A stretch of DNA of 64,000 nucleotides from an uncultured Actinomycetota bacterium. GTDB lineage: Bacteria; Actinomycetota; Actinomycetes; DATJPE01. The notes under the pieces were generated by a model that was given only the letters and a program-made list of their open reading frames with translations, was not told the origin of the DNA and ran no database searches. The stretch spans positions 54,088 through 118,087 of the forward strand of contig CAWDUP010000004.1 in the NCBI GenBank assembly GCA_963805505.1, given 5' to 3'. This document shows positions 8,498 to 29,936 of this stretch, in pieces. Positions within the stretch are counted from its first letter, which is position 1, and the number at the start of each line of letters is the position of its first letter. The position numbers and the translations under genes were made by a program.

Positions 8498-8635
8498 GTC
8501 GGCCGAGCCTACGCGACCTGCTCTGGGTGGCGAGGTTGGTCCGCGCTACGGACGCGGCGATCGCCAGTCTCGTCATGAACGCTTGGCGCGCGCGTCTTAG
8601 GGAGACACCCAGCCGGACACCCCAGGAGCCTCGCC

Positions 8636-11062: not shown

Positions 11063-11210
11063 CTTCGACCGCGTTGCTGAAGATGTTCTTCAGCTGGTCG
11101 TCGGCCACCAGCCAGATCGCTGTGACCAGACCCGCCGTCATCACGGTCACCAGCACCCAACCGGGTACGTCTCCGCGGTCGCGTTCACGCATGAGCGCCG
11201 CCGTACGCAT
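11046..11210 (-). CDS. Flp/DUF4244-like small pilin candidate
   Basis: Small ORF RERDRGDVPGWVLVTVMTAGLVTAIWLV with a hydrophobic core after a charged leader. It sits between tadC and the tadE genes, where Rv3656c-type DUF4244 pilins are found. The start is uncertain; candidates are 11255, 11231 or 11210. Confidence 0.5.
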   Translation of the reverse strand: MRTAALMRERDRGDVPGWVLVTVMTAGLVTAIWLVADDQLKNIFSNAVEGVTGP

Positions 11211-11264
11211 GCTCAACCGATCCCACAGCATCAGCGGGAGCAGCAGACTGGACATGGTTTCCTC

Positions 11265-14283: not shown

Positions 14284-14501
14284 CGGCTGCCCGCCCCTCG
14301 AGTCGGCGCTACGGAACTCAGCGCATCAACGCCCCCGCTTGGGACGCTAGGGGCTCGCAAGCAAGCCCAACAAGGAGGTTCATCCGAACTGGGGACAGCC
14401 TCGCTGACACACCAGCCACCTGGTGACCACAGTCCCCGCCTGCCCCATTCGCCACACGCCGAAACGGCTCGCAGGCCCCGATGATCTTGGGCTTGATCAG
14501 C

Positions 14502-14632
14502 CGGCGCCGCCTGTGGGGACAAAAGCGTGCGACCTGTCCGCAGAGCGACGTTGACGGTCGCCAGTTCGAAGACCTCGGCCCGACCGAGGTCCGAGAGCCT
14601 TAGGCGGGCAGGCGCCAGGCTCTCGGGCTTTT
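14502..14632. repeat. Degenerate copy of the 3' end of the gdh gene at 29806-29936 (attL-like remnant)
   Basis: Both copies begin with tcagccRgcgccgccYgtggggac and continue with ...tccgcagagcgacg...ggtcgccagKtcgaagacctcggccYgaccgaKgtccgagagc. By eye this is about 80-85% identity over roughly 130 nt, with a 2-nt indel that breaks the frame in this copy. It lies in the tadA-HAD intergenic region. Confidence 0.7.
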
Positions 14633-14645
14633 GGCGCCGCGCCGC

Positions 14646-15287
14646 TCAGTCCATGCCCAGCCTGGCGCGGACGTCACGGAAGCTCCGCTCGGGATCAGTG
14701 ACGTCAAAGCTCAGCGAGGGAATCCCCAGCGACTCTGCCCCCCTGACATTGGCCGGTTGGTCGTCGACGAACAACAGGTCGCTCGGCAGGAGGGAAAGCC
14801 GGTCCAGCATCAGCTGGTAGGCGGCTGGCTCTGGCTTGAGGGCCCCTTCGACAGACCCGTCGACCACCAGGTCGACTCGACGGAGCACCTGCAGCCCGGC
14901 GACCCACTCCTCGCCGTGGAAGGCCAGCAGGTCGTTGGTGAGCACCGCCACGACAAGTCCCGACGCCTTCGCATCGCGAATCAGCTCAGCGGCCTGGACC
15001 CGGACGAGTTCGGACTCGGGTGCGTCGTAGAGCAGGCCCATGAGGCTGGTGAACTCGACGGCCCGCCCCGTCAGCGAGGCAAACTCCTCGATACGTCGCC
15101 GCCAGTACTCCCGCTCGCTGATGCCCCCCGCCTGCTGGAGCCGCCAATCTGGATCGGCATCCGGATCGAAAGGTCCGCTCCACGCCAGACTGCCCGGCGG
15201 GAGGCCGGCTCGCTTCTCACCGCCGCGGACCAACTCGAAAGGGGTACGTAGGACGGGGCCGCCGAAGTCGAGGACCAGCGCGGTCAC
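14646..15287 (-). CDS. HAD-superfamily hydrolase
   Basis: 213 aa with motif I LVLDFGGPV and motif IV FVDDQPANV, a type IA HAD. It is the first gene inside the repeat-bounded insert. Confidence 0.75.
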   Translation of the reverse strand: MTALVLDFGGPVLRTPFELVRGGEKRAGLPPGSLAWSGPFDPDADPDWRLQQAGGISEREYWRRRIEEFASLTGRAVEFTSLMGLLYDAPESELVRVQAAELIRDAKASGLVVAVLTNDLLAFHGEEWVAGLQVLRRVDLVVDGSVEGALKPEPAAYQLMLDRLSLLPSDLLFVDDQPANVRGAESLGIPSLSFDVTDPERSFRDVRARLGMD

Positions 15288-16072
15288 CGAGCCTGGCCCG
15301 GGTCTGATCTGCTGACGGAGACGCCGCGTCGGTCGAAATCGGCGTACACGACGTCGCCCGGGTCAAGAGGCACAGCAGCGGTCAGCCCGCCCGTGAGCAC
15401 GACGTCACCCTGGACGAGGCTACGTCCACGATCTGCGAGCGCCCGAACCAACCATCGCAGGGCGTCGAATGGCCCTCCCATGGCATCTCGACCCGCTCCC
15501 ACGCCACATGGTTCACCGTTGCGACGCAGCGTCACTCGGATGTCGCGCAGGTGTTTTCCCTCGTCATCGAGCGGCAGCTCTGGACCCAGAACTGCGAAAG
15601 CAGCCGACGACCCGTCGGCGGTGTTGTCCTCCAGTCGGAAGCGATAGTCCAGAAACACAGAGTCGACGACCTCCAGAGCCGCCCGCGCACTACTGACGGC
15701 TGCGGCAACTGCGTCCGGGTCGCGTTCGTCACCCTCCCGCGTTGCTCCTGCGACAAGGGCGATCTCCGGCTCGACCCGTGGGTGGAGGAGACCGGCTTCG
15801 GGCAGCACAGCCCCCGAGGTCACCACCATCGAGTCGGTGAGCGGCCCGAGGTTCGGCTCGTCGATGCCCATCTGGCGGCGCATGGCCGCGGAGGTGTAGC
15901 CGAGCTTCCACCCAACGATCCGTTCGCCTCTCTCGAGGCGGGCCTGGACAACACGCTCCTGAACGGCGTACGCCTCGTCCAGCCCATCGGGGCCGTCGCT
16001 GAGCGGCGCCTTGAGCAGGACACCCCGGCGTCGGGCGACCAGGATCGTGTCAGCGACTCGCTGGGCGTCCAT
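15284..16072 (-). CDS. 2-keto-4-pentenoate hydratase / 4-oxalocrotonate decarboxylase family (MhpD/XylJ/XylI-like)
   Basis: 262 aa with VGWKLGYTSAAMRRQMGIDEP ... EPEIALV, the MhpD-family signature. Confidence 0.8.
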   Translation of the reverse strand: MDAQRVADTILVARRRGVLLKAPLSDGPDGLDEAYAVQERVVQARLERGERIVGWKLGYTSAAMRRQMGIDEPNLGPLTDSMVVTSGAVLPEAGLLHPRVEPEIALVAGATREGDERDPDAVAAAVSSARAALEVVDSVFLDYRFRLEDNTADGSSAAFAVLGPELPLDDEGKHLRDIRVTLRRNGEPCGVGAGRDAMGGPFDALRWLVRALADRGRSLVQGDVVLTGGLTAAVPLDPGDVVYADFDRRGVSVSRSDPGQAR

Positions 16073-16084
16073 CGGCGTCGAATC

Positions 16085-16372
16085 TCAATGCTCTGGCTCA
16101 TAGATCGTCGCCCGATCGAAGCGAACGACGTTTCCGGTCCACCGGCAGGAGGCGCACCAGGTCAGAAACACCCGCTCGTCGGCGGACCAGTACTCAGTCG
16201 TGATGCCCGTCGTGAGGGATGTGCCGCACATCGGGCAGAACTTCGGCCGGTCGAGCAGATGCCGTTCGGCGTCGGGGGCGAACCACTCCCCGGGGTCGGG
16301 GAGCAAATGAGGATCGGGCGGCAGCTGACTGCTCACCGCGTTGGACCTAGCCACTGCTGTCTGCAGCCGCAC
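16085..16372 (-). CDS. Small hypothetical protein with a putative zinc ribbon (CPMCG ... CASC)
   Basis: 95-aa ORF between the hydratase and Rieske genes with two Cys pairs 22 aa apart. The start is uncertain because the track ORF overlaps the Rieske stop by 26 nt. I see no homology-level evidence. Confidence 0.3.
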   Translation of the reverse strand: MRLQTAVARSNAVSSQLPPDPHLLPDPGEWFAPDAERHLLDRPKFCPMCGTSLTTGITTEYWSADERVFLTWCASCRWTGNVVRFDRATIYEPEH

Positions 16373-17603
16373 GGGCAGCGGCCGCGTCTCGATGCAGCCT
16401 CAGCAGATCATCCTTGATGGGGCTGTAGCGCATCGACCCGCCGGTGATCCACTGGTCGGTGAAGGCGGCCCCAGCGCCGAACTTGTCTTTCTCGCAGGGC
16501 AACGTGATCACCTCGTGCTCCTCGCGGATCGTGCCGATGGGGTCCTCCCCGTCGGCAACCTTCCGCATGTTCTCCTTGAACATCTTGCGGAGCATCGCGA
16601 CACCGGCGTCGCTCCTTCCAAGGTGTTCCAACGAGCGGTCGACGATCGGGCCCTGCGAGACCCACGCCATCACATCCTGGCCCTCGACGTAGTCGGTGAT
16701 CAGGGTGCCGTCGGCTCGCTGCCACGGGTACTCGTAGACCATGGGACGGTCCTGCGGCTCCCAGCCCCCTTCGGGAGGGTGGTGAAGGGAGTAGAACAGC
16801 GTCCACGTATGCGTGTCGTCAATCGGCACCCGAATTTGCATCTGGTCGATGTACTGGCCGCCGACGCGCATGTAGAACGGGAATACCAAGGGATGCCCGA
16901 TCGCCCAGTCATCGTCCTCTTCGCTGTGGCCCTCGAGGACCCGACGCTTGATGATGCCCCATTCGAACTCGTCGAACGCAGTCTTGACGTGCTTCTTCTG
17001 AAACGACTTCGGGGCGTCGAAACCCTGCGTCTGGCCAAGGAACTCGAAGTAGTAGCCGTGCAGCCACTCCACGTGGTGCGGGTCGACCGAGTTCTCCATG
17101 ATCTGCAACCAGCTGCAGGGCAAGGTCGACACACCTACGTCACGAACTCCGTCCAGGACGAACACGTCGAAGCGCGGCAGTAGCGGGGCCGGACCAGGTC
17201 CGACATAGACCCACACCATGCCTCCCATCACTTGTGCGCTACCTGCCTTGGCCCTGACACGGTCACGAAAATTCTGGTTGTCCGCCTCGGCCGGCTGCTC
17301 AACACACGACCCATCGAAGTCGAACTTCCACCCGTGATATCCGCACCGGATGCCGTCGTTGTGGACGACCCCGTAGGTGAGCGAGGCACGCCGGTGCGGA
17401 CAGTGTTCGGCGATGATCCCGTAGCGACCCGACGCCGTCTTGTAGAGCGTCCAGTCCTCTCCGAGCAGCCGAACGGTCTTCGTCGGCCGTTCGTCGAAGT
17501 CCTGCTCGAACGCGATGGGATACCAGTAGCGCCTGAGCAGCTCGCCCATCGGCGTCCCTGGTCCGACCCTGGTCAGCTCTTCGTTCTGCTCGACGGTAAG
17601 CAT
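16347..17603 (-). CDS. Rieske non-heme iron ring-hydroxylating oxygenase, single-subunit (alpha) type
   Basis: Rieske motif CPHRRASL...CGYHGWKF, then a mononuclear-iron region DPHHVEWLHG. I place the start at ATG 17603 (MLTVEQNEELTRVGPGTPMGELLRRYWYP), overlapping the upstream stop as ATGA. No beta-subunit gene is adjacent. Confidence 0.85.
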   Translation of the reverse strand: MLTVEQNEELTRVGPGTPMGELLRRYWYPIAFEQDFDERPTKTVRLLGEDWTLYKTASGRYGIIAEHCPHRRASLTYGVVHNDGIRCGYHGWKFDFDGSCVEQPAEADNQNFRDRVRAKAGSAQVMGGMVWVYVGPGPAPLLPRFDVFVLDGVRDVGVSTLPCSWLQIMENSVDPHHVEWLHGYYFEFLGQTQGFDAPKSFQKKHVKTAFDEFEWGIIKRRVLEGHSEEDDDWAIGHPLVFPFYMRVGGQYIDQMQIRVPIDDTHTWTLFYSLHHPPEGGWEPQDRPMVYEYPWQRADGTLITDYVEGQDVMAWVSQGPIVDRSLEHLGRSDAGVAMLRKMFKENMRKVADGEDPIGTIREEHEVITLPCEKDKFGAGAAFTDQWITGGSMRYSPIKDDLLRLHRDAAAARAAADSSG

Positions 17604-19414
17604 CAGTCCTCCAGAACCGTCACGTGTCCGGTGTTGCCGTCCACTCGGATCCGCTGCCCGGTCTTGATCGTTGACGTGCCGAACGCGGTCCCAGTCACGG
17701 CAGGCAAGCCGTACTCGCGGCACACGATGGCGGCGTGACTCATCATGCCGCCCACGTCGGTGACCGTCGCCTGGATCTTGCCGAAGATCGGTGCCCAGCT
17801 AGGCGCTGTCAGGGGTGCCACCAGGATCTCTCCATCCTCCACCTCACCGATCTGGTCGGCGCTGAAGATGACGCGAGCAGGTCCCTCCACCAATCCCGGT
17901 GAGGCGGCGAAGCCCTTGAGCCCACCGTCGCCCGCATCTGACGATGACAGCCACCCTTGGACGCTGTCGGAGGTAATGCCCCAGAGCATGACGGTGAACG
18001 GTTCTGTGACGACCTCCGGGGGCTCCCCGAGCGCGGGCACTGCCTTCCAGGTCTTCAGCGCATCGACGATTCCCTTTCGTCGCTCGATCTCGCGCGGCCA
18101 GTAGTGGGGGCCGCGGGGCTTGGTTCCGACGGCCCACGCTGAGTACATGTCCCACAGCGCCTCGGGAACCTCGTCACGCTTGAGGAAGAAGACGTCGTCC
18201 GCCTCGGCGAAGAAGCCCTCCTTGACGAAGATCTCGCCGAGCCCGCGCATCTTGCGCCACAGCACCGAGTGCGCCCAATGCTCGACATAGAAGTTGTGGT
18301 TCTCCACATAGGGAAAAACTGTCCTCGACAACCCGAGCTTGCCGTCGAAGGCGGCTCTGTCGTCGTCCGTCGCCAGCAGCTCGCGATATTCGCTCACCAC
18401 CCGGTCTCGTTCGGCGTGCAGAGCCGCGATGGGGCGTGCCAGGTCCACCCCGTCGCGCACCTTGGCGATGTAGTCGCGGATGAAGCCGAACGGAATCTCG
18501 ACGTTCTCGATCCAGATCTTGTCCGAGTGATAGAAGCCCGAACCCGCCGAGAAGTTGAACCAAGGCTCGCACGAGTCCTCCCACGCGGCGAGCCAGGCGT
18601 CACCTTCTTCGGTCCCCGTCAGCGCGTCGCGCACCGACTCGGGATCGCCGGCGAAGTGCTCACTGATCCCGGACTCCACGGCCATCCTGGCGAGCTTCTT
18701 CAACTCGTCGTCGGGCCGGAACAGGTCGACGTCTACCCCGGCCACCATCTTCGCGATGGCGAGATCGGGGATGCTGGGGAACGCCTCCTTGCAGAAGCCG
18801 AAGAAATCGAGGTACGCGGCATAACCCAGGTTGAGGAACTCGAAGTGGTACTGCCACAGCTGCAGGGAAAGGTCGAGGAGTTTGTGGTACGTGGCCTGGA
18901 GGTCGTACCCGGATCCGATGCCCCGCCCCGAGGTGACCACCTCGAGGTCCTCCTTCTCGGGCAGCGGCTCAATCCGCAGCTCGGTCATTTCCTGCACCAG
19001 CGCGCGGACCTTGACCAACCACTTGTCGTATAGGTCGTCCCAGTTGCCGAAGTAGAAGCCGGCTCTTTCCATGAAGTGCGGGATCCGGGCGCCGATCTCT
19101 TCCGGGTCAGCGACACCGACAGGCGCTAGGTACGCGTAGCCGTTGAGGATGCGGAAGTCGACGCCAAGTGCTGGGGGGATCAGGTAGTGGCGGGTGTTGT
19201 ACTGGGACAGCGATGCCAGGGCGAACTCGTAGAACGTGGCATCCCAGGGCGTCATCACCTCGGGCCAGTGCACGCCGTCCTGGAACCAGAACCCCGCGTC
19301 CTCGTACTCGCGACGGTCCTCGCTGAACAACGAGGAGTAGCTATAGAGCCCCTCCCACCCCTCAGCGCCTGTTGGGGTCTCGATCTCGAACGGGCTCGGG
19401 AAACGATCGGCCAT
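17603..19414 (-). CDS. PEP-utilizing-enzyme family protein with a C-terminal swivelling phospho-histidine domain (PpsA-like subunit of a split phosphotransferase)
   Basis: 603 aa with a C-terminal signature GGMMSHAAIVCREYGLPAVTGT (PEP-utilizers mobile domain). The N-terminal roughly 500 aa has no PPDK_N domain. The gene has its own GGAGG Shine-Dalgarno 8 nt upstream of the ATG. Confidence 0.75.
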   Translation of the reverse strand: MADRFPSPFEIETPTGAEGWEGLYSYSSLFSEDRREYEDAGFWFQDGVHWPEVMTPWDATFYEFALASLSQYNTRHYLIPPALGVDFRILNGYAYLAPVGVADPEEIGARIPHFMERAGFYFGNWDDLYDKWLVKVRALVQEMTELRIEPLPEKEDLEVVTSGRGIGSGYDLQATYHKLLDLSLQLWQYHFEFLNLGYAAYLDFFGFCKEAFPSIPDLAIAKMVAGVDVDLFRPDDELKKLARMAVESGISEHFAGDPESVRDALTGTEEGDAWLAAWEDSCEPWFNFSAGSGFYHSDKIWIENVEIPFGFIRDYIAKVRDGVDLARPIAALHAERDRVVSEYRELLATDDDRAAFDGKLGLSRTVFPYVENHNFYVEHWAHSVLWRKMRGLGEIFVKEGFFAEADDVFFLKRDEVPEALWDMYSAWAVGTKPRGPHYWPREIERRKGIVDALKTWKAVPALGEPPEVVTEPFTVMLWGITSDSVQGWLSSSDAGDGGLKGFAASPGLVEGPARVIFSADQIGEVEDGEILVAPLTAPSWAPIFGKIQATVTDVGGMMSHAAIVCREYGLPAVTGTAFGTSTIKTGQRIRVDGNTGHVTVLED

Positions 19415-19429
19415 TGCCAGACCTCCGGT

Positions 19430-20500
19430 CTAGTCCTTGCGGGAGTACAGCGGGTTGACGAGCGTGCTGACGATGCTGCTCATGAGGTCGGTCGTGCCGT
19501 GCGTGACCGAGCGGTCCTTCTTGCTCCACACCGTCTCCGGCCGGGACTGAAGGAGGACTACGTTCGAGCCCTCGGGAAGGTCCGCGTCGACAGCCCATTC
19601 GATGTCCTGCGGGCAGCCGTAGTGCTTTTCTGCGGTTCGCGCGAGGCGGGCCACAGCCTGGATCTCTGTGTCAGTGATGCTGGGGGTGTTGACGCGGTCC
19701 GGGTCCACCTCCAGGAACTCGACGGCCTTCCCGTCGACGAGCCGGTACTCATGGGTCTTGGGTGAGATGGTCCGCTGGCTGACCGCGTACAGGACCTTGT
19801 CGACGAGGAAGTTGTCCGGCGTCACCTCGCCCGACACCACGCCCTCGCCGAAGCCCCATGAACTGTCGATGGCAATGGTGGACCGGTCGCCGTTGCCGGG
19901 ATTCAGGGTGAACGCGACCCCGGCAGCCTTGGGTCGAACCATCTTCTGGACCGCGACACTCATGGCGATGTCGAGGTGGGAGTAACCCATCTCCACGCGG
20001 TAGCACAGGGCGCGGTCGGTGAACAGGCTGGCCCAGCAGCGCCGTACGTGACGGCTGACGGCTTCGGCCCCACAGATCCACAGGTAGGTGTCGTGCTCGC
20101 CGGCAAACGAGGCGTCCGGCGAATCCTCACTCGTGGCTGAGGATCGCACCGCGACCGGGACGTCATCAGTCTCACAGCGGTGGCACAGGCGCGTGTAGGC
20201 GTCGGCGATTTCTTGGTCGACACCAGCGGGCATCGGCCAGGACATGATCAGGGAGCGGATCGTGGTGGCTCGCCGCGATACCTCGGGCAGGTCGTCGACG
20301 TCCAACCCGTCGAGCAGCTCGGCGATGCGATCGACGATGCCCGACTCATCCCGCGCGCGGCGGAAGGCATCGGTCGTCACCGCGAATCCTGGCGGGACAG
20401 GGAGTCCCGCCGCAACCATCTCCCCCAGGCTGGCGCTCTTGCCGCCCACCGCTGCGCGCTGCTCGGGGACGAATGCGTCGAACCACACCACCACGCTCAT
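19430..20500 (-). CDS. Pyruvate phosphate dikinase N-terminal (PPDK_N) ATP-binding-domain protein (PpsB-like subunit)
   Basis: 356 aa with GGKSASLGEMVAAGLPVPPGFAVTTDAFRR, the typical PEP synthase / PPDK N-terminal ATP-grasp. There is no histidine swivel domain in this ORF. Confidence 0.75.
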   Translation of the reverse strand: MSVVVWFDAFVPEQRAAVGGKSASLGEMVAAGLPVPPGFAVTTDAFRRARDESGIVDRIAELLDGLDVDDLPEVSRRATTIRSLIMSWPMPAGVDQEIADAYTRLCHRCETDDVPVAVRSSATSEDSPDASFAGEHDTYLWICGAEAVSRHVRRCWASLFTDRALCYRVEMGYSHLDIAMSVAVQKMVRPKAAGVAFTLNPGNGDRSTIAIDSSWGFGEGVVSGEVTPDNFLVDKVLYAVSQRTISPKTHEYRLVDGKAVEFLEVDPDRVNTPSITDTEIQAVARLARTAEKHYGCPQDIEWAVDADLPEGSNVVLLQSRPETVWSKKDRSVTHGTTDLMSSIVSTLVNPLYSRKD

Positions 20501-21370
20501 CGCGCTCCTCCCTCAACGAGTTCGGTCATTGCGTGCCTGGACCAGTCCGGGAGCTCGCCCGGTGACGGCACGTGAACCTCCTGGACCCGATTGCGGTAGA
20601 GGACCAGCGCGGTGACACCCCCGTCGATGAGGCGGACGCGGACGAACTCGGTGTTGAAGGGCTCTCCGGGGTCGTAGCCCATGGCCCAGGTGGCGAAGGC
20701 GCGGATCGGTCCGGAGTGGGTGGTGACCACGAGGGTCCGACCCGCGGATTCCTCTGCTACGCGCAAGAGCCCCGACCAGAAGCGACGGACGCAAGAGGTG
20801 GGAGGTTCGAGATAGAGCATCGGCATCGTCAGCCAATGAGTGATCGGATCGCCGCCGCCATCTTGGATGCCCCAGAACCTGTCGACCTCCACCAGCCAGC
20901 CGGGGCGCTCTCCCAGTGCTGTCCGCTCGTAGCGCTCCATCTCGCGTTGGTACTGGCGGAAGGCTGCCGTGATGTCTCGGAAACCCTCGGGGGTCCATAC
21001 CTTGAAGTTGGAGAACTCTTCGTAGGCGGAGATCTCGCCGACCTCGGCCTCACGGCCATAGAGAGACATACCGTCGAGCAGTCCTCGCTTGAGGTGCTCG
21101 GCGGTCTGCCGTGCGCGATTCGTGTCGGCGCTCGCCAGGGCCACTCGATGCCCGTCGTAGACCCGGCGCGCGATCTCCCGCCCGCGGTTGTGGGACTGCC
21201 AGGAGCCCAGTGGGGTGAGTCCTGCTTCCGAGGAGTACCCCTGAGTCTCGCCATGCCTGACGAAATAGACGTCCGTGACGACGTCGGCCGCCTGATCCCG
21301 TCGCTCCGGGACGATCTCCTTGGTCCGTGTCACCTCGGCCCATGCACGCGTGGCCGGCAGTTCTGCACCC
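20497..21370 (-). CDS. Histidine phosphatase family protein (phosphoglycerate-mutase-like)
   Basis: Catalytic motif VYFVRHGETQ with a downstream conserved core. The N-terminal boundary is uncertain: the track ORF extends to 21591 through a low-complexity region, and another frame (21050-21637) encodes a protein-like segment (LTRYRQRLAEERDRKRSR), so a frameshift is possible. Confidence 0.6.
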
Positions 21371-21647
21371 TCCCACGCTGGGCGCGCCCGTCGGTCGGCA
21401 CGTCCTGGCGTGCCGGGTCCCCGCCGTGCTGACGTTCTCGGAAGCGCCGCAAATACAACGGGATGGCGCCGGCTTCGCTTGTCGGCTCCTCTTGCGGTCG
21501 CGTTCCTCAGCCAGCCGCTGCCGGTATCGAGTGAGGTAGGCGGGCGCGTCCGGACGCTCGATACGGGGCAGCTCGGCACGAGGAGCCACACCAGCCGTGG
21601 GTTCGGCGTCGCCGTCCTTCATGCGGAAGGCGGTCACGACCCAAGCC

Positions 21648-22559: not shown

Positions 22560-23452
22560 CAGGTGTGGACCTTCATGAACCGTTCGTTGAGCTCGCCCTC
22601 GTAGTAGAAGATGGCACGCCCTACGTTGTCTTCGGTCCAGGTGATGGTCGGGAAGTCAGGGTCAGGACGGTAACCGCCGGTGAAGACCTCATTGCGCGTG
22701 CCTAGCGGGTCGAAGAAGTAGATCGTGGTCCCGCGTGTGATGCCGTGCCTCGTCGGCCCCACATCGATTTGGATCCCGTTGTAGGCCAGGATGTCCGCGG
22801 AACGTCGCACGTGATCCCAGTCGTCGAGCCAGTAGGCAAAGTGGTGGAGGCCACCGTTCGGGCCGGTGACCACGGCTAGGTCGTGGGGGGAGTGCGACCG
22901 CTCCATCCAGGTGCCGATCTGGTGGCCATTGCCGTCGAGCAGCTGCTCGGTCACCCTGAAACCCAGCACCTCTGTGTAGAACGTCGTGGCCTCGCCGACC
23001 TCCTCAGCAGTGACGAGCAAGTGGTCCATCCGAGGTGGCGCGATGCCCGGTATTCCTTGGGCGAAAGGCGGCGGATTGACCTTGGGAAGCACGCCGCCGA
23101 CGCGCTCGATGTCGCGGACCAGCTCCATCGTGTGCCCGGAGGGAGTTGCGAACCGGATGGACTCGCCCTGGCCGACGGACTCGCCCTTGCTGATGCGCTG
23201 AACCGGGAACCCGTAACGCGTCACCGCGATCTCGAACTCGGCAAGGTCATCGTCGTGGTCGACTTTGAACGCCATCAGGTCAAGCCCGACTCGTGGGGCG
23301 TAGACCAGGCGCAAGGAATGGTGGTCGGCCTCGTCCCAGCACTTCAGGTAGACCGATTCCTCGTCACGCCCGGACACGAGCATGCCCATGACCTCGGTGT
23401 AGTAAGCCGTGGCCAGGTCGAGATCGGTGACCGTGACGTCGACGTGGGCCAT
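22559..23452 (-). CDS. Catechol 2,3-dioxygenase paralog (type I extradiol dioxygenase)
   Basis: Paralogous to the adjacent gene, with MAHVDVTVTDL ... HHFAYWL ... GTTIYFFDPLGTRNEVF. I place the start at ATG 23452 or 23467; the track ORF has a spurious upstream extension. Confidence 0.85.
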   Translation of the reverse strand: MAHVDVTVTDLDLATAYYTEVMGMLVSGRDEESVYLKCWDEADHHSLRLVYAPRVGLDLMAFKVDHDDDLAEFEIAVTRYGFPVQRISKGESVGQGESIRFATPSGHTMELVRDIERVGGVLPKVNPPPFAQGIPGIAPPRMDHLLVTAEEVGEATTFYTEVLGFRVTEQLLDGNGHQIGTWMERSHSPHDLAVVTGPNGGLHHFAYWLDDWDHVRRSADILAYNGIQIDVGPTRHGITRGTTIYFFDPLGTRNEVFTGGYRPDPDFPTITWTEDNVGRAIFYYEGELNERFMKVHT

Positions 23453-23557
23453 CCGAAGCACGCCCATCGGCCACCTCGCAGTCAGACGCCTCGCGCGTCG
23501 GGGTCGGTGCCGCCGACGGTACGACGGGTCGTCCCGCATGACAGGACTACGTGCCGC

Positions 23558-24293
23558 CATGCGGGACGGCATGGTCTACGGTCGCCCGATGGAGTCACCG
23601 CGCCCCGAGGACATGCGAGCCCTGGTCGCCGAGTTCGTCCGGTCCCTCCACGCGGCCTACCTCGATCAGGCCCGGAAGCTGGCCCCAGCCGAGCGCGCCA
23701 GGCTGCCGTTACTCGCCGCTGGCGAGCTCGTGGTCGCGGCGGCCGCCGCCCGCCAGCTGCACCTCATCGCCACCAGCGACGCCTTCCCTGCTCCGCAAGG
23801 GCCCGAAGTCGTCGTGGTGGACGAACTCCCAGGGCTGACCTGGTCGCTTCGATTCTTTGACCCGGTTGTCCTGCCGGAACTCGGATTGTTGGATGACAAC
23901 GGCGAGGCCTCCGCCTCCGAGGTCCGGCGGGTCCTCGGGGTCGGGGCGATGGTCTATCACTTGTCTGTGAGTGCGGGCGGGGGCCTTTCGCCCCACCACG
24001 CGCAGCACGCGGGCACGGGACTGGCCAACCAGCATGCTGCCGCCGCTCGCGACTTCGACGCTCTGCGAGCGGCTGTCGGTGACCGCGCCGAGCTCGTCGA
24101 CGAGCTGGCCGTAGCCGAGCAGGTCGGCCTACCCAGGGCCGCGGCGCTGCTGGCCGAGGCGATCATGCCGGGAGACGACCACGTCCGCTCAGCGGCGGTC
24201 AGCGGCTCCCCGGTCGAGGTGCGTCGGGCCTTGTTGAGCGCCGTCCGCGAGCAGCGCACGGCGCAGCCCTGGGGGGCTTCGCATGGTCGATGA
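23558..24293 (+). CDS. Hypothetical Ala-rich protein, translationally coupled to the IclR regulator
   Basis: The reading frame continues up to an ATGGTCGATGA overlap with the IclR start. I chose ATG 23558 to avoid an overlap of more than 100 nt with the dioxygenase gene. I recognise no domain. Confidence 0.4.
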
Positions 24294-25101
24294 CAAGCGG
24301 TCCACAGGCGGCACGCAGGTGCTCACGAGCGTCGCCAACGCGGCACGGCTGCTCAAGGAGTTCGGTCGGGGCGGCGAGCGTGAGCTCGGGGTGAGCGAGC
24401 TGGCGCGACGGCTCGGCATCGGCAAGAGCACTGCGCATCGGCTGGTGCACACCCTCGCGAGCGAGCGGTTGCTGGAGCAGAACCCCGAGACCGGCGCCTA
24501 CCGACTGGGGCTGGTCATGCACGAGATGGGCGCCAGCGTGCAAAGCGGGATGGACATCCACTCGGCTGCCACGCCGGTCATGGAGCAGCTACGCAACCTG
24601 ACCAAGGAGACCGTGCAGATCGCGGTGCTCGATTTCCGCGAGGTGGTCTACATCGAGCGCAGAGAAAGCCCCCAGACCATCCGGCTGTTCGGTCGCGTTG
24701 GCCACCGAAACAACGCCAACTCCACCTCTACGGGCAAGGTGCTCTTGGCATTCCTGCCTCCGGAAGAGCTCGACCTTGTGCTCAAGGACTGGCGGCTGCC
24801 GCGCAAGACCCGTTTCACGGTCACGGACCAACGAACTCTGCGCACGCAGTTGCAGATGGTCCGGGCCAGGGGTTATGCCGAGAACGTCCAGGAGACCGAG
24901 ATCGGCGTCGGCTCGCTGGCAGCGCCGATCCGCGGGTCTCTGGGCGACGTGGTGGCGGCCCTGTCGGTCGCCGGGCCGGTTCAGCGCTTGGATGGCGACA
25001 GCATGCAGCGCTTCGCCCGACCCGTCATCGAGTCGGCGGCCGCCATCAGTCGGAGACTGGGCTGGCGGGATCGCGTCGCGGCGCGGGGGGGACCGGCATG
25101 A
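24283..25101 (+). CDS. IclR-family transcriptional regulator
   Basis: N-terminal HTH VSELARRLGIGKSTAHRLVHTL and a C-terminal IclR effector-binding domain. Confidence 0.85.
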   Translation: MVDDKRSTGGTQVLTSVANAARLLKEFGRGGERELGVSELARRLGIGKSTAHRLVHTLASERLLEQNPETGAYRLGLVMHEMGASVQSGMDIHSAATPVMEQLRNLTKETVQIAVLDFREVVYIERRESPQTIRLFGRVGHRNNANSTSTGKVLLAFLPPEELDLVLKDWRLPRKTRFTVTDQRTLRTQLQMVRARGYAENVQETEIGVGSLAAPIRGSLGDVVAALSVAGPVQRLDGDSMQRFARPVIESAAAISRRLGWRDRVAARGGPA

Positions 25102-25886
25102 CCTTGACGAGCAGACAAGCTGACCGGCTCGCCGACGACGTGTACCGAGCCCGGCGAACGGGAGTGGCCATCGCGCCGCTCGCCGAGGCCCATCCTGATC
25201 TCTCGGTCGGTGACGCCTATCTCGTGCAGCAGGGGGTCGTACGGCGCTACGTGGAGGACGGGGACCGTGTCGTCGGCTACAAGTTGGGGCTGACCAGCGC
25301 CCCAATGCAGCAGATGTTCGGAGTCTCCTCTCCCGACTTCGCCCCCGTCATGGCGTCGCATGTGCGGCCCGATGCGGCGGCGGTCGATGCTGCTGACTTC
25401 ATCGCGCCGAGGCTCGAGGCCGAGATCGCGCTGGTCCTCGCAACCGACCTGTCCGGGCCCGACTGCACCGCCGTCGACGTGCTCCGAGCAACCGCAGGTG
25501 CGGTAGCCGCCTTGGAGCTGGTCGACAGCAGGATCCGCGACTGGAAGATCACGCTGGCCGACACGGTGGCCGACATGGCGAGCAGCGGGGCCATCGTCCT
25601 GGGCGGGCGTGCAGTTCCCCTGGCGGACATCGACCTTCGGCTGGTCGGCATGGTGTTCAGCCGCGACGGGGAAGTCTTGGCCAGCGGCGCTGGCGCGGCG
25701 GCGCTGGGCAATCCCGCAGAGGCGGTGGCCTGGCTGGTCCGGACGCTCCACGAGCTTGGCGCTTCGCTGTCGGCGGGCGACGTGGTCATGACCGGCGCAC
25801 TCCACGCGGCCGTACCGGTGCTGCCGGGTCAGGTCTATCGGGCCGACTTCGACCGGCTCGGTCCGGTCTCGTTGCGGATTGTCTGA
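25098..25886 (+). CDS. 2-keto-4-pentenoate hydratase / 4-oxalocrotonate decarboxylase family
   Basis: 262 aa with VVGYKLGLTSAPMQQMFGV ... LEAEIALVL, the MhpD/XylI/XylJ-family signature. Confidence 0.8.
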   Translation: MTLTSRQADRLADDVYRARRTGVAIAPLAEAHPDLSVGDAYLVQQGVVRRYVEDGDRVVGYKLGLTSAPMQQMFGVSSPDFAPVMASHVRPDAAAVDAADFIAPRLEAEIALVLATDLSGPDCTAVDVLRATAGAVAALELVDSRIRDWKITLADTVADMASSGAIVLGGRAVPLADIDLRLVGMVFSRDGEVLASGAGAAALGNPAEAVAWLVRTLHELGASLSAGDVVMTGALHAAVPVLPGQVYRADFDRLGPVSLRIV

Positions 25887-26052
25887 GAAGGCTGAACATG
25901 GGATATCTCCGCGCGCTCATCGGATCGGGCAACCGCGGCACCGGCCTGATGCGGGTCGGGGCCTCCGACGTCCTCGGCCCGGTCGACGACATCTCCGCCC
26001 AGCTGGCCCGCACCGCCTGGGCGGGAGAAGGCTCGTCCTCAGGGGGTCCGGC

Positions 26053-26844
26053 ATGACCAAGGTTCGCGAGCTCGACACGGAGCCCCTGGTGCGGACGCTG
26101 ATCAGCGCGGTGCGCGACCGAACCGCGGTGCCTCCCTTGACCAACGACATCGACAACCTCGACGTCGCGACGGCCTATGTGGTCCAGGACGCTGTCGTCA
26201 ACGCGCGCGTCGCGGCCGGAGCGCAGGTGGTGGGAGCCAAGCTCGGACTAACCAGCGAGGCCAAACAGCGTCAGATGAGTGTGGACTCACCCATCTACGG
26301 CTGGCTGACAGGTGACATGCAGCTCGACACGGGCGAGGCACTGGCCTGCGGCCGCTACATCCAGCCTCGGTGTGAGCCGGAAGTGGCATTCCTCCTCCAA
26401 AGTGACCTTGAGGGAGCTCACATCACCGGTGCTCATGTGCTGGCCGCGACCGATGCGGTGTTTGCTGCCGTGGACGTGCTGGACTCGCGCTTCGCTGGCT
26501 ACTCGTTCACGTTGCCCGACGTCGTTGCTGACAACGCGTCGTCCGCGGGATTCGTCCTCGCTGGCAACGCTGTCGACCCACGCGGCATCGATCTGCGTCT
26601 GGTCGGGTGTGTGCTCGAGAAGAACGGAGAGCTGGTCGCTACGGCTGCCGGCGCGGCCGTCCTCAGCCATCCGGCTGCCTCGGTGGCGTGGCTGGTTCGA
26701 GCCCTCGCGGCCCGCGGTCGGGGCCTGCGCGCGGGCCACATCGTGATGGCCGGCGCCTTGACCGAGGCCGTCGCGGTCGCGCCGGGCGACACCATCGTGG
26801 CGCGCTTCGACCGACTGGGCACGCTCGAGATCGCTTGCCGGTGA
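26053..26844 (+). CDS. 2-keto-4-pentenoate hydratase / 4-oxalocrotonate decarboxylase family, second tandem paralog
   Basis: I place the start at ATG 26053 (MTKVRELDTEPLVRTL), followed by VVGAKLGLTSEAKQRQM ... CEPEVAFLL. The track ORF has a spurious 58-aa N-terminal extension. Confidence 0.8.
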   Translation: MTKVRELDTEPLVRTLISAVRDRTAVPPLTNDIDNLDVATAYVVQDAVVNARVAAGAQVVGAKLGLTSEAKQRQMSVDSPIYGWLTGDMQLDTGEALACGRYIQPRCEPEVAFLLQSDLEGAHITGAHVLAATDAVFAAVDVLDSRFAGYSFTLPDVVADNASSAGFVLAGNAVDPRGIDLRLVGCVLEKNGELVATAAGAAVLSHPAASVAWLVRALAARGRGLRAGHIVMAGALTEAVAVAPGDTIVARFDRLGTLEIACR

Positions 26845-26857
26845 GGAGGACCCGAAC

Positions 26858-27100
26858 ATGCCCTTGATCCAGGTCACGATGGTGGCCGGACGAACTCCGG
26901 ACCAGAAGCACGCCTTGATCCGTGGGCTCTCCGAGGCCGCCGCCGCTGCACTCGACACCCCCATCGACCGGGTCAGGGTCGCGATCTACGAGGTCTCAGC
27001 GGACGAGTGGGGCATTGGCGGTCGTGCCTACGCGCAGGTGCGGGGCGGAGCCGCGCAGCCACCTGAAGATGTCCCTTCCCGAACTACGGAGGACGGATGA
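26858..27100 (+). CDS. 4-oxalocrotonate tautomerase family protein
   Basis: 80 aa beginning MPLIQVTMVAGRTPDQKHALIRGLSEA. This has the N-terminal Pro1 after Met and the tautomerase fold pattern. Confidence 0.8.
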   Translation: MPLIQVTMVAGRTPDQKHALIRGLSEAAAAALDTPIDRVRVAIYEVSADEWGIGGRAYAQVRGGAAQPPEDVPSRTTEDG

Positions 27101-28566
27101 GCGAGCAACCGCGACTGGTCCAGCACTTCATCGACGGAGCCTTCGTCGACAGCCTCGATGGGAAGACCTTCGAGTCTGTGTCGCCCATCGACAACCAAGT
27201 CGTCGCTGTGGTCGCCGAGGGATCCACAGCCGACGCGGATCGCGCGGTCGAGTCGGCACGCCGAGCCTTCGACGACGGGCCGTGGCCACGGATGAGCCCC
27301 GGGGAGCGGCGGGCGGTTCTCTACCGCGCTGCCGCGCTGATCGATGAGCGTCTCGACGAACTGGCCGCGTGGGAGACCCTCGACATGGGCAAGCCGATCA
27401 GCGAGGCGCGAGCCAAGGACGTGCCGCGCACGGCCTATAACTTCCGATTCTTCGCCGACGTGGCCGAGCAGGCTCACAGTGAGGCCTTCCCGAAGCCGTG
27501 GGACCGCGTGCTCACCTACACCGTCCGTGAACCCGTTGGGGTGTCGGCCTGCATCGCGCCATGGAACTTTCCGATGATGCTCGAGTCATGGAAGGTCGCG
27601 CCAGCTCTTGCCTTCGGCAACACCGTCGTTCTCAAGCCGGCCGAGCAGAGCCCCGTCACCGCCTCGATGCTCGTGGAGTGCTTCGCCGACGCGGGGATGC
27701 CCGACGGCGTCTTCAACGTCGTGCAGGGCTTCGGGCCCGGCGCGGCGGGTGAGCGGTTGACGACGCACCCTGGGGTCGACCTAGTCACGTTCACCGGCGA
27801 GAGCGCGACGGGCAAGGTGATCATGGCCAACGCCGCCGCCACGCTCAAGCGGTGCTCGTTCGAGCTGGGAGGCAAGAGCGCAAGCATCGTCATGGCCGAC
27901 GCCGACCTCGATCTTGCGTTGTCCGGCACTATCGACGGCATCTTCCGCAACCAGGGCGAGGTCTGTCTGGCCGGCTCTCGGTTGCTGGTGCAGCGGCCGG
28001 TCTACGAGGAGTTCCTGGCCCGCTACGTGGCGGCTGCCGAGGCGCTCGTCGTCGGCGATCCTCGAGCGAGCGAGACCCATGTCGGGCCGATGGTCTCGAC
28101 CGAGCATCTCGACAAGGTGATGTCCTACGTCGAACTGGCGCAAGAAGAAGGTGCCAAGCTGATGACCGGGGGCGGGCGCGTGACGGACGGAGCCCTGCGA
28201 GCGGGGAACTTCATCGCGCCGACCGTCTTCGCCGACGTTGACAACACCAGTCGTGTCGCACAGGAGGAGGTGTTCGGGCCGCTGCAGGTTGTCATGCCCT
28301 TCGACACCGTTGAGGAGGCCATCGCGCTGGCCAACGACAGCCGCTACGGTCTCGCTGGAATGGTCTGGACCACCAACCTCAACACAGCCCACCGCGTCGC
28401 GCGCGAGGTGCGCACCGGCACGATGTGGGTGAACTGCTTCTTCGTCCGGGACCTGCGCGCCCCGTTTGGTGGCATGAAGGACTCTGGTCTTGGCCGTGAG
28501 GGCGGCGCCTACTCGGAGGAGTTCTTCACCGAGGCCAAGGCCGTCGTGCTTCGGTTCCCCGAATGA
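27097..28566 (+). CDS. NAD+-dependent aldehyde dehydrogenase (2-hydroxymuconic / carboxymethyl-hydroxymuconic semialdehyde dehydrogenase-like)
   Basis: 489 aa with the ALDH glutamate (FELGGKSA) and cysteine (QGEVCLAGSR) active-site motifs. It is coupled to the tautomerase gene by overlapping codons. Confidence 0.85.
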   Translation: MSEQPRLVQHFIDGAFVDSLDGKTFESVSPIDNQVVAVVAEGSTADADRAVESARRAFDDGPWPRMSPGERRAVLYRAAALIDERLDELAAWETLDMGKPISEARAKDVPRTAYNFRFFADVAEQAHSEAFPKPWDRVLTYTVREPVGVSACIAPWNFPMMLESWKVAPALAFGNTVVLKPAEQSPVTASMLVECFADAGMPDGVFNVVQGFGPGAAGERLTTHPGVDLVTFTGESATGKVIMANAAATLKRCSFELGGKSASIVMADADLDLALSGTIDGIFRNQGEVCLAGSRLLVQRPVYEEFLARYVAAAEALVVGDPRASETHVGPMVSTEHLDKVMSYVELAQEEGAKLMTGGGRVTDGALRAGNFIAPTVFADVDNTSRVAQEEVFGPLQVVMPFDTVEEAIALANDSRYGLAGMVWTTNLNTAHRVAREVRTGTMWVNCFFVRDLRAPFGGMKDSGLGREGGAYSEEFFTEAKAVVLRFPE

Positions 28567-28979
28567 GCGCTGGGATGCTGCACCGGGTCTGTCCGGCCGA
28601 GGAACTCGCGGATGGGGGCTGCCGCCGTGCCGAGTTCGAGGGTCGCGCCGTACTAGTCGCCATCGTCGACGGCGATCCCTACGCCGTTTCCGACACCTGC
28701 CTTCATCGGGAGGGCCGGCTGTCTGACGGGGTCTTCCGGGACGGCGTCGTCACGTGCCCGGAGCACTGGTGGCGTTATGACGTCACCACCGGAGCGCGGA
28801 CCGACGAGCCATCCCAGACGCTCGAGTCGTACCCTGCGCGCATTGAAGAGGGTTGGGTCGTGGTCGACTTCCCACCGGCCGAGCCGGCGCGATCACTGCG
28901 GGAGGTCCTGCTGGCGCACGCCCGTGGGCTTGAGCTCGACGCTCGCGTCACGGACCCGGCTGCAGCCAGCGACGCCTAG
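28563..28979 (+). CDS. Rieske-type [2Fe-2S] ferredoxin (oxygenase ferredoxin component)
   Basis: 138 aa with CLHREGRL ... CPEHWW, i.e. CxH...CxxH. Confidence 0.8.
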   Translation: MSAGMLHRVCPAEELADGGCRRAEFEGRAVLVAIVDGDPYAVSDTCLHREGRLSDGVFRDGVVTCPEHWWRYDVTTGARTDEPSQTLESYPARIEEGWVVVDFPPAEPARSLREVLLAHARGLELDARVTDPAAASDA

Positions 28980-29575
28980 AGGCGGTGCTTGCCCACATCC
29001 CAGCCCTTGTCACCGATCAGTTGGGAGGCTCTCGCTGTCGGCAATTCTTCCAGTGGGGTGCCGAGAGAGTCGTTCCAGCGGTTGAACACTCCGAACATGC
29101 AGACGACCCCCAGGATCTCGACGATCTCGTCCTCGGTCCAGTGCTCTGCAAGCGCCCGGTAGGAGTCGTCCGTGACAGCATTGGGAACCGACGCCGCCTC
29201 CAAGGCGAAGTCGAGCGCGACCCGCTCCTTGTCGGTGAACAGCGGGCTGGTCGGATAGTCGTAGATCGCCGCCATCTTCTGGTCATCGATGCCGTGACGG
29301 GTCGCACTGACCGTCGTATGGGCTTTGCAGTACTGGCAGCCCGAGGCAAAGCTGGCCATGTGGGCCACCAGCCGTTTGAGGCCTAGGTCGACCTGGCCGT
29401 TTGGATTGAAAACTGCCCGATTGAGCCCGATGACGGCCTTGGCGATCGCGGGCACTCGCTGCATCGTCAGAAGACTGTTGGGCACGAAGCCGAGGGTGTG
29501 CGTGAAGTGATCCAACGCCTCCGCGAGATCGGGGTCGGTGCACTCCTCCAACGGGATGGGGTCCATCCGCGCCAT
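28976..29575 (-). CDS. Carboxymuconolactone decarboxylase (AhpD-like) family protein
   Basis: I place the start at ATG 29575 (MARMDPIPLEE...). The motif SGCQYCKAHT is the AhpD-like CxxC/H. The 364-aa track ORF has a spurious N-terminal extension. Confidence 0.75.
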   Translation of the reverse strand: MARMDPIPLEECTDPDLAEALDHFTHTLGFVPNSLLTMQRVPAIAKAVIGLNRAVFNPNGQVDLGLKRLVAHMASFASGCQYCKAHTTVSATRHGIDDQKMAAIYDYPTSPLFTDKERVALDFALEAASVPNAVTDDSYRALAEHWTEDEIVEILGVVCMFGVFNRWNDSLGTPLEELPTARASQLIGDKGWDVGKHRL

Positions 29576-29805
29576 GGCTGGCTCCTTCGATTGGTCGGAC
29601 CGCGCGGCCGCCGCCCGGCAACCATGCTTCCAGCCAGGGCTCGACTCCCGTGACCTCGTTCTGCTCCGCGGTACGCGAGGTCTCTCCCAGAAGGAACTGC
29701 CGCCAGGAAGGTGCCGCGCGGCGTGGTTCCTGGACAACCACGGGGTGCCACCGCCTGCGGCGTCCTCGTGCCGCCAGCCAGCACGACACGAGTCTCGCGG
29801 GCGAA

Positions 29806-29936
29806 TCAGCCAGCGCCGCCCGTGGGGACGAGCGTGCGGACGGTCCGCAGAGCGACGCTCAGGGTCGCCAGGTCGAAGACCTCGGCCTGACCGATGTCCG
29901 AGAGCGTTCCACGGGCGCGCGCCAGTCCCTCGGAGT
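29806..29936. repeat. Intact copy (gdh 3' coding end) of the direct repeat paired with 14502-14632
   Basis: Same sequence family as 14502-14632. Here it is in frame and encodes the GDH C-terminus (...ALRTVRTLVPTGGAG*). Confidence 0.7.

Follow-up and report, generated by a model that had tools for sequence, protein, structure and literature searches.

A catabolic block between gdh and tadA in an uncultured actinobacterium as a probable old, integrase-independent duplicative insertion

We analysed a 64,000-nucleotide (nt) window, the whole stretch of DNA considered here, from an uncultured actinobacterial lineage (coordinates are window positions unless a related locus is named). Within it, a segment of about 15 kb carrying genes for aromatic catabolism separates gdh, which encodes a giant NAD-specific glutamate dehydrogenase (GDH), from tadA, the first gene of a tad operon. 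A sequence-only reading had taken the direct repeats of the gdh 3' end that bound this segment for attL and attR, left by an element that integrated into gdh and regenerated the gene. We arrive at a different answer because we polarised the repeat against an empty-site relative and compared the block with its other genomic context: with a probability of roughly 0.7, window 14641-29791 is an old, integrase-independent duplicative insertion. What we observe comprises a two-copy repeat, relatives in which the site is empty, a gap of variable content, a distal copy whose polarity and decay can be read, an insert colinear with a non-mobile block elsewhere, and a lack of mobility genes among those scanned; from these we infer the mechanism of the insertion.

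Two copies of the gdh end flank a segment missing from related genomes

The proximal copy of the repeat (29806-29936, minus strand) consists of the last 43 codons and the stop codon of the functional gdh. A blastn search of this segment against the whole window returned a second copy near tadA, at 14497-14626 (E = 7e-34), in direct orientation and with 83.1% identity over 130 columns interrupted by one 2-nt gap. The repeat, estimated by eye at 80-85% identity, is therefore real and significant. Its distal copy had been placed at 14502-14632; the location stands but the exact start is 5 nt off, the stop codon ('tca' on the forward strand) lying at 14497-14499, and the copy extends to ~14626, possibly ~14640. 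Beyond the stop codon, clear homology between the copies amounts to 1 base, with weak similarity over ~12 nt further. As had been noticed, the distal copy is out of frame: its minus-strand translation reads KPESLAPARLRLSDLGRAEVFELATVNVALRTGRT, then the frameshift, then VPTGGAG and a stop, where the gdh end reads NSEGLARARGTLSDIGQAEVFDLATLSVALRTVRTLVPTGGAG and a stop.

The ungapped core of the repeat was also recovered as family D2 in a repeat search (14524-14626 and 29831-29933, 83%). Only these two copies are present in the window, the remaining blastn matches being chance similarities (≤23 nt, E ≥ 0.02). A degenerate 43-nt core pattern matched both known copies only, with 0 matches in 100 shuffles, and a 15-nt core matched none of 96 loci examined except L009, from a contig with the same island. 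These results rule out a dispersed repeat, a possibility that the sequence-only reading had raised. Separately, the 2-nt TT insertion behind the frameshift gives rise to a short run of T following a weak hairpin of 5 bp (14528-14542, minus strand), which a terminator scan flags just downstream of the HAD operon, at a score not above shuffle expectation.

Related loci were collected by scanning genome collections with the GDH C-terminus, which gave five loci from a thinly sampled lineage. By GDH amino acid (aa) identity the closest is L001 (94%), followed by L006 (80%), L007 (79%) and L008 (78%), all others being at ≤70%; an exact-protein look-up found no identical copies of the window GDH and TadA proteins on record. 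L001, L006, L007 and L008 have in common a backbone of WS_DGAT, patatin, DUF6912, aldehyde dehydrogenase (ALDH), gdh, tadA, tadB and tadC. The gap between gdh and tadA holds no genes in L001 (~360 nt, tadA starting 359 nt after gdh), in L015 (~360 nt; the same species as L001 from a second sample, 98.5% nt identity) and in a third assembly, L008 (201 nt). It holds a single Rieske ferredoxin gene in L006 (14864-15247 of that locus, convergent with gdh and beginning 12 nt past its stop), three unrelated genes in L007 (ABATE/zf-CGNR regulator, FtsX-type permease and ABC ATPase; 14887-20154 of that locus, from 26 nt past the gdh stop) and 17 genes over 15.2 kb in the window. Among more distant relatives, a TadA scan of metagenomes (TadA 60-78% aa identity) found six loci out of 80 in which gdh lies upstream of tadA at a distance of 2.5-9 kb.

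No second copy of the gdh end was found in L001, L006, L007 or L008, the cargo-bearing L006 and L007 included, and none near tadA in the 80 metagenome loci. Pfam searches identified no mobility-associated proteins in the gap cargo of L006 and L007 or in the window island. The L006 Rieske gene was considered as a remnant of the island ferredoxin and rejected (no similarity at E < 1e-5 and >40% query coverage).

Because gap content differs among L001/L015, L008, L006, L007, the window and the distant relatives, the interval between the gdh stop and the ~200-nt tadA leader is a long-standing variable spot, and by the same comparison the 15-kb segment is an insertion relative to related genomes. 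The arrangement of gdh directly followed by the tad operon, anticipated for relatives of the window, is present in L001, L015 and L008, and the insertion accounts, as had been proposed, for the separation of gdh and tadA.

The distal copy as a decayed end of the host gdh

We compared the last 132 nt of gdh among the proximal copy, the distal copy and L001, using L006-L008 as outgroups. Private states number 17 in the distal copy, 1 in the proximal copy and 10 in L001, and all three sequences differ at 4 sites. Not one of the 17 distal-private states is found in an orthologue, and among them are several that alter residues invariant in five species. They are distributed 4/6/7 over the three codon positions, which fits a uniform spread (p = 0.66) and rejects the pattern of the functional gene (p = 4e-7; binomial p = 4e-4 for ≤7 third-position changes), in which the window and L001 gdh differ at 89 first, 38 second and 522 third codon positions. 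Because the private changes lack outgroup support and spread uniformly over the codon positions, the distal copy is this lineage's own gdh end, drifted as a pseudogene. A foreign gdh as its source is ruled out: the closest sequence is the window's own gdh (83%), with L001 at 77% and L006-L008 at 62-66%.

The 10 sites at which the proximal and distal copies agree against L001 are spread 1/1/8 over the codon positions, and the three outgroups mark 3-4 of these 10 as derived on the window branch. The neutral divergence of the distal copy (Jukes-Cantor distance 0.14-0.18) amounts to ~0.67-0.85 of the divergence that third codon positions have accumulated per lineage since the L001 species split off. 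Since both window copies share derived states of the window branch and have diverged to this extent, the duplication postdates the L001 split; the insertion is thus old, though later than the split from the L001 species, and the empty site is the primitive state.

Replacement of the gene end by an element would predict a foreign-looking proximal copy, or differences between the copies of the kind found between functional orthologues; neither pattern was observed. The gdh gene is 93.7% identical in aa and 86.6% in nt sequence to its L001 orthologue and retains all eight Pfam NAD-GDH domains (catalytic domain, E = 1e-268). Its last 43 codons are 88.4-88.6% identical to L001, against a gene-wide median of 86.8%, and nt identity across gdh shows no step over these codons. 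The two copies are therefore not the displaced original and the element-borne replacement that the attL/attR reading implies: the proximal copy, at 88.4% against the 86.8% median, shows no foreign history, and the distal copy is a decayed host gdh end.

The insert matches a non-mobile chromosomal block from end to end

Leaving aside the population of the window itself, the insert has its closest relative in contig_84796 (70.9 kb, represented by L014 and L016). There the genes stand in the order CMD, Rieske ferredoxin, ALDH, 4-oxalocrotonate tautomerase (4-OT), FAA hydrolase, dmpG, dmpF, FAA hydrolase, IclR and a hypothetical gene, followed by two catechol 2,3-dioxygenases, histidine phosphatase, PPDK_N, PEP-utilizers, Rieske oxygenase, a hypothetical gene, FAA hydrolase and HAD. 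The island is colinear with this block end to end at ~83% nt identity, and the only internal difference is the loss of dmpF and dmpG (dmpFG) in the window. In contig_84796 the block has as neighbours an abhydrolase and a hypothetical gene at one end and, at the other, DUF2252, abhydrolase/hydrolase, APH-type kinase, GntR, PAC2, SDR, Nei, GATase and ThiF genes; neither mobility genes nor gdh-like sequence was found beside it.

The homology to contig_84796 reaches almost to both repeats. On the left it stops at 14642, 4 nt past the HAD stop codon. On the right, where the last stretch corresponds to the start of a DUF2252 open reading frame (ORF) in L016 (its true start codon is uncertain, the Pfam domain beginning only at residue 66), homology ends at 29791 or perhaps 29798, 8-14 nt from the gdh stop, and global alignment allows a weak extension of the blastn match towards 29798-29805. 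At most ~14 nt thus separate the insert from the repeat at either junction. Because the insert is flush with both repeats, there is no room for att arms or remnants of mobility genes. Two further points speak against the attL/attR reading: the insert is a non-mobile chromosomal block along its whole length, with no DNA left over to serve as att arms, and the junction lies past the stop codon, so that regeneration of the gene was not needed. The inserts of L006 and L007 at this site have no duplication.

Third-position divergence between the island block and contig_84796 is 0.38, compared with 0.32 for the backbone of the window and L001 and 0.43-0.55 for that of L006-L008. As the block value falls between the backbone values, the source was either the lineage's own genome or a relative at about the level of the family. 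The composition fits a source that was similar or has long been ameliorated. The island has a GC content of 66.4% vs 68.7%, and its left operon has the largest tetranucleotide distance (0.018-0.020 vs ≤0.0137 elsewhere); the GC content at third codon positions (GC3) is not significantly lower (0.815 vs 0.837, p = 0.15). The compositional contrast expected of an island is accordingly present as a modest GC shift and a tetranucleotide outlier in the left operon, and absent in GC3.

The same divergence values bear on the possibility that the island is ancestral at this site and has since disappeared from L001, L015 and L008, perhaps through recombination of one repeat copy with the other. Direct-repeat recombination would precisely remove the island and one copy, leaving gdh followed by tadA, and the block's divergence from contig_84796 predates the window-L001 split. 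Such a history would take two or more independent precise losses, however, together with replacement by unrelated cargo in L006 and L007; the distal copy shares the 3-4 derived states of the window branch, which with its divergence places the duplication after the L001 split; and the 90% cluster from a search with the PEP-utilizers protein contains no member of the L001 species. We regard an ancestral island as quite improbable.

An independent assembly joins the insert to the tadA side

A second assembly, contig_32707 (15,337 bp, sample ERZ25039539; L009 and L013), corresponds to window 14467-29801 at 99.5-99.7% identity, with differences that look like long-read homopolymer errors. Its sequence runs through the HAD stop and the entire pseudo-gdh copy into the tadA-side spacer, of which 30 nt are present and align with the L001 spacer. 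This linkage confirms the left junction and argues against both a chimeric join and a circle closed through the repeat.

An assembly artefact, in which the island was misjoined between gdh and tadA and the repeat marks a chimeric join, is very improbable on these grounds. The source is a long-read metagenome contig, and in another sample the island makes up a separate contig of 15.3 kb with an end at either edge, as a misjoin might lead one to expect. But contig_32707 ties the island physically to tadA-side sequence, long-read assembly would not be misled by a repeat as weak as 130 nt at 83% identity, and a misjoin does not create a frameshifted, decayed gene fragment.

Mobility genes and the integrase alternative

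The window was searched for machinery that could have moved the insert. In Pfam scans, neither transposases nor integrases or other recombinases turned up in the ORFs of the island or in 31 others of the window, which together make up all but ~5 ORFs of the tad locus and spacer; within that scope the statement that the window lacks an integrase or recombinase is borne out. No tRNA, tmRNA or Rfam family was found in the window. The insert ends carry no terminal inverted or direct repeats (end-to-end alignment score 9.0 vs a shuffle mean of 8.8). Insertion of a transposon or insertion sequence (IS) was rejected: no transposase was found, there are no terminal repeats, and a duplication of ~135-150 nt is far above the target duplications of IS elements. 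In PLSDB, no plasmid carries the cluster at more than 56% aa identity.

The principal alternative is a decayed or trans-mobilised integrative element resembling cis-mobilizable elements (CIMEs), which derive from integrative and conjugative or integrative and mobilizable elements (ICEs or IMEs), retaining attL and attR while lacking integration and transfer genes (PMC5704250). Its attP would have contained the gdh 3' end, its integrase would be lost or located elsewhere, and a tyrosine or serine recombinase would have acted within the last ~130 nt of gdh. CIMEs are a described class (PMC5704250), direct repeats of a gene 3' end do bound a coherent accessory block here, relatives have empty sites, and the second assembly terminates at either edge of the island, which would be expected of a variably present element. 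We nevertheless consider this explanation unlikely. No recombinase was found among the Pfam-scanned genes across 64 kb; the insert is colinear with a non-mobile block to within ≤14 nt of the repeats, with neither att arms nor mobility remnants; and the block in contig_84796 has no gdh-like sequence next to it. Both repeat copies derive from the host lineage, the proximal one without a foreign signature, and other cargo entered the same gap in L006 and L007 without duplications. The 30 nt of tadA-side spacer in contig_32707 show that it is not a circle closed through the repeat, and the cluster occurs on no PLSDB plasmid (best match 56% aa). An integrase reading would require that all element DNA has vanished, leaving the block flush with the repeats and att arms made of ordinary cluster DNA.

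In a particular form of this alternative, the integrase-less island would still be mobilised in trans by a host or co-resident recombinase that recognises the gdh 3' end, and so be variably present. We give it little credence. If true, it would explain the break of the second assembly at both island edges, and it would add to the CIME-like class a case from an uncultured actinobacterial lineage with a giant NAD-GDH gene as target and a purely catabolic cargo free of mobility genes.

Proposed course of the insertion

An integrase-independent duplicative insertion would account for these observations as follows. A self-contained chromosomal catabolic block, comprising a CMD/AhpD-like gene and a meta-cleavage, dikinase-like and Rieske cluster, would have entered a short permissive gap between the gdh stop and the tadA leader, the content of which varies across this actinobacterial family. 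The event would have been illegitimate, non-site-specific and duplicative, involving no site-specific recombinase acting on an element-borne att site. Native sequence would have been left 0-14 nt past the gdh stop and resumed ~140 nt upstream of the stop, which would yield a ~135-150-nt target duplication (about -140 to +12 around the stop) on either side of a 15.15-kb foreign or relocated slice. The gdh gene would never have been interrupted, and, because the junction between native sequence and insert falls after the stop codon, needed no regeneration. The copy attached to gdh would have stayed under selection, and the tadA-side copy would have become a pseudogene with 17 private substitutions and the 2-nt insertion.

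Three routes could lead to this structure, and the probability given above covers them together, as they are inseparable with these data. In the first, a linear fragment would be captured by fill-in of a staggered break and end joining, or replication would switch template out and back. The second is a Campbell-type single crossover of a circular intermediate carrying a gdh end picked up in a sibling strain. In the third, a short stretch would first be duplicated locally in tandem, and the block would then insert between the two copies.

Several points weigh against a duplicative insertion of this kind. The final structure is formally the same as that of a site-specific integration with a long identical att core, and neither microhomology nor a core can be read at the junctions, given ~13% decay and parental sequences diverged by 13-17%. 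The polarity argument is based on only 132 nt with 3-4 informative sites. The single private change of the proximal copy compares with ~5 predicted by a simple clock, and divergence along the repeat is uneven (10 of 33 nt in the first 11 codons vs 12 of 99 in the others, p = 0.03). The relatives are without exception metagenome assemblies, and the integrase search covers a 64-kb window of a 504-kb source contig. Finally, contig_32707 ends ~4-5 nt short of the gdh stop on one side and 30 nt beyond the pseudo-gdh stop on the other; these ends may reflect strain-level presence and absence of the island or a graph artefact, and a presence/absence polymorphism would be surprising because the proposed insertion is old and immobile.

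Gene content of the insert

The features of the window discussed here are listed in Table 1. The catabolic genes named by the sequence-only reading were identified correctly, as judged by Pfam, NCBIfam and comparison with L009.

Table 1. Features of the insert and its immediate surroundings (window positions; strand '.' where none applies)
Feature	Position	Strand	Evidence
tadA, T2SSE-family ATPase, first tad operon gene	13042-14283	-	Pfam T2SSE; 96% aa identity to L001 tadA
Native gdh-tadA spacer and tadA leader	14284-14496	-	Aligns with spacer of empty-site relative L001
Distal repeat, frameshifted pseudo-copy of last ~43-46 gdh codons	14497-14640	-	83.1% identity to 29806-29933, 2-nt insertion
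HAD-family hydrolase, last insert gene	14646-15287	-	Pfam Hydrolase, HAD_2
FAA-hydrolase-family enzyme, first copy	15284-16072	-	Pfam FAA_hydrolase
Conserved small hypothetical protein, 83 aa	16085-16336	-	Called in L009, identical; no family match
Rieske oxygenase with LigXa_C domain	16347-17603	-	Pfam Rieske, LigXa_C; limits from identical L009 protein
PEP-utilizers/PRK08296-family protein of dikinase-like pair	17603-19414	-	Pfam; NCBIfam NF006150
PPDK_N ATP-grasp protein of dikinase-like pair	19430-20500	-	Pfam
Histidine-phosphatase-superfamily protein, start codon uncertain	20497-21591	-	Pfam His_Phos_1
Two tandem catechol 2,3-dioxygenase genes	21648-22559, 22559-23467	-	NCBIfam TIGR03211
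Conserved hypothetical protein, 244 aa	23559-24293	+	No Pfam/NCBIfam match; same place in L010, L012, L014
IclR-family regulator	24283-25101	+	Pfam HTH_IclR, IclR_C, E = 4.5e-45
FAA-hydrolase-family enzyme, second copy	25098-25886	+	Pfam FAA_hydrolase
Deletion scar, 83 nt in place of dmpF and dmpG (1.9 kb)	25986-26068	.	L016 7064-8972 without window counterpart
FAA-hydrolase-family enzyme (hydratase/decarboxylase type), third copy	26053-26844	+	Pfam FAA_hydrolase
4-OT-family protein, 80 aa	26858-27100	+	Identical L009 protein with Pfam Tautomerase
ALDH, 2-hydroxymuconate-semialdehyde dehydrogenase type	27097-28566	+	Pfam Aldedh, E = 4e-175
Rieske-type ferredoxin	28575-28979	+	Pfam Rieske, Rieske_2; identical protein in contig_32707
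CMD/AhpD-like peroxidase-related protein, 199 aa, first insert gene	28976-29575	-	Pfam CMD
Remnant of first ~50 nt of called DUF2252 ORF or leader	29743-29791	+	Aligns with L016 12631-12680
Right junction zone, 14 nt from gdh stop to end of donor-like homology	29792-29805	.	blastn to L016 ends at 29791
gdh, giant NAD-specific glutamate dehydrogenase, 1617 aa, intact	29806-34659	-	Eight Pfam NAD-GDH domains

The island contains most of a meta-cleavage module, with dioxygenase, semialdehyde dehydrogenase, tautomerase and hydratase/decarboxylase present and the DmpG/DmpF pair missing. Homologues of the ALDH are named aminomuconate/2-hydroxymuconate-6-semialdehyde dehydrogenase by JGI. The catechol 2,3-dioxygenases match TIGR03211 at 355.8 and 376.8 bits (cut-off 320.2); these paralogues are ~66% identical in nt sequence, forming repeat family D1, and the pair is kept in every version of the cluster seen. 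The CMD/AhpD-like protein is 92.9% identical in aa sequence to that encoded by the ferredoxin-adjacent CMD gene of L016 and matches NF053654 (YciW-related) and TIGR01926 (peroxidase-related) below their curated cut-offs.

The missing genes, dmpF (acylating acetaldehyde dehydrogenase) and dmpG (4-hydroxy-2-oxovalerate aldolase), are kept in contig_84796 and in L012; in L016 they correspond to an AcetDehyd-dimer ORF (6973-7881) and an HMGL-like/DmpG_comm ORF (7878-8960). A remnant ORF (25898-26056) lies at the deletion site in the window. Their loss leaves the lower meta-cleavage pathway incomplete, unless the activities are supplied elsewhere in the genome. The insertion has a modest practical consequence, probably the gain of an aromatic ring-cleavage route that is now without dmpFG.

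The Rieske/LigXa_C oxygenase, the split dikinase-like pair and the histidine phosphatase (16347-21591) form a unit conserved across many Actinomycetota. In the PEP-utilizers search the cluster was common in this phylum at 74-86% aa identity (examples L012, L010 and L011). The large subunit of the dikinase-like pair scores 864 bits against NF006150 (cut-off 650), a family still named 'hypothetical protein', and both proteins of the pair have partial NCBIfam matches to rifampin phosphotransferase. A literature search on the function of the cluster found no direct match, the nearest characterised system being HpeHI of Rhodococcus rhodochrous (PMC12167813, PMC9618137). By domain architecture and gene context the island pair resembles HpeHI: an ATP-grasp protein (PPDK_N) and a swivel/substrate-binding protein (PEP-utilizers) are separate, both are partly similar to rifampin phosphotransferase, and the surrounding aromatic cluster also encodes a phosphatase. 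It differs in that the island has no biotin carboxylase and the pair stands beside a Rieske/LigXa_C oxygenase and two catechol 2,3-dioxygenases. That the unit carries out a phosphorylation-assisted hydroxylation or demethylation of a phenol would be a guess only. The cargo may prove of more interest than the insertion, in that the pairing of a dikinase-like enzyme with a Rieske oxygenase is uncharacterised and widely conserved.

The native flanks

The island is surrounded by core genes, among them smpB, ftsEX, prfB, tad, secA and a sigma factor. The smpB gene (2591-3067) stands in its usual prfB, ftsE, ftsX, smpB neighbourhood; ARAGORN and Rfam detected no tmRNA in the 64-kb window. In the tadA leader (~14355-14417), ~85-110 nt upstream of the tadA start, an invariant TGGGGC-N46-48-TCCCCA pair is kept at the same place in five species (the window, L001, L006, L007 and L008). 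Support for an RNA structure there is weak (RNAalifold, -7.9 kcal/mol with an unfavourable covariation term; no Rfam match), and the pair could be a pair of protein-binding sites or an element of the promoter region. Past the gdh stop, L001 (~11096-11290 of that locus; also L015) has ~190 extra nt that carry AACGACGAG-like short repeats and an inverted repeat with 23-nt arms. The window retains only a right-arm-like CAAGATCATCGGGG just after the distal stop, and either L001 gained the extra sequence by insertion or the window lost it by deletion.

Comparison with known systems

Among integrative elements in gene 3' ends, ICESt1 and ICESt3 sit in the 3' end of fda. The island resembles such integrative elements and CIMEs in having an accessory block between direct repeats of a gene 3' end, an intact target and empty sites in relatives. 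It differs in that no integrase or element-specific ends were found, the insert equals a chromosomal block that is not mobile, and the repeats, 83% identical, are of host origin and pseudogene-like. Nor was a second occurrence found at the gdh target in L006, L007, the 96 loci or the 80 metagenome loci. No ICE or IME remnant was seen in the island and no related functional element at this site; derivation of the island from an ICE or IME is not supported. The case is a caution that direct repeats of a gene 3' end are insufficient to call attL and attR.

In Campbell-type insertion-duplication, a circle bearing a gene fragment integrates by a single crossover. The layout matches (an intact gene, the insert and a truncated second gene end in direct orientation), but a circle joining the block to a ~150-nt gdh fragment would be needed, and neither such a molecule nor vector DNA was seen. 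A Campbell-type layout is indistinguishable from a duplication by break repair or template switching.

About half of the hotspots of gene turnover are without recognisable mobile elements, and 27% are without any integrase or transposase (Oliveira et al., 2017; PMC5635113). The gdh-tadA gap is similar to the integrase-free hotspots: it holds 0 genes in L001/L015, 0 in L008, 1 in L006, 3 in L007 and ~17 in the window, with no mobility-associated proteins and with accessory metabolic genes as cargo. The island itself has the look of an ordinary genomic island free of integrases, not of a dedicated mobile element, and gives a clear, datable record of a catabolic block entering a core-gene neighbourhood without recognisable mobile-element machinery. 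Turnover in the published hotspots is explained by homologous recombination in flanking core genes, with no target duplication (PMC5635113), whereas the ~135-150-nt flank duplication here would mark a primary illegitimate insertion. The founding events of integrase-free hotspots are rarely visible; at this site the long target duplication keeps a footprint. With its differing content and lack of mobility proteins, the gap appears to fit the class of integrase-free turnover hotspots between core genes, and would be unusual within that class in that its founding event left a long duplication.

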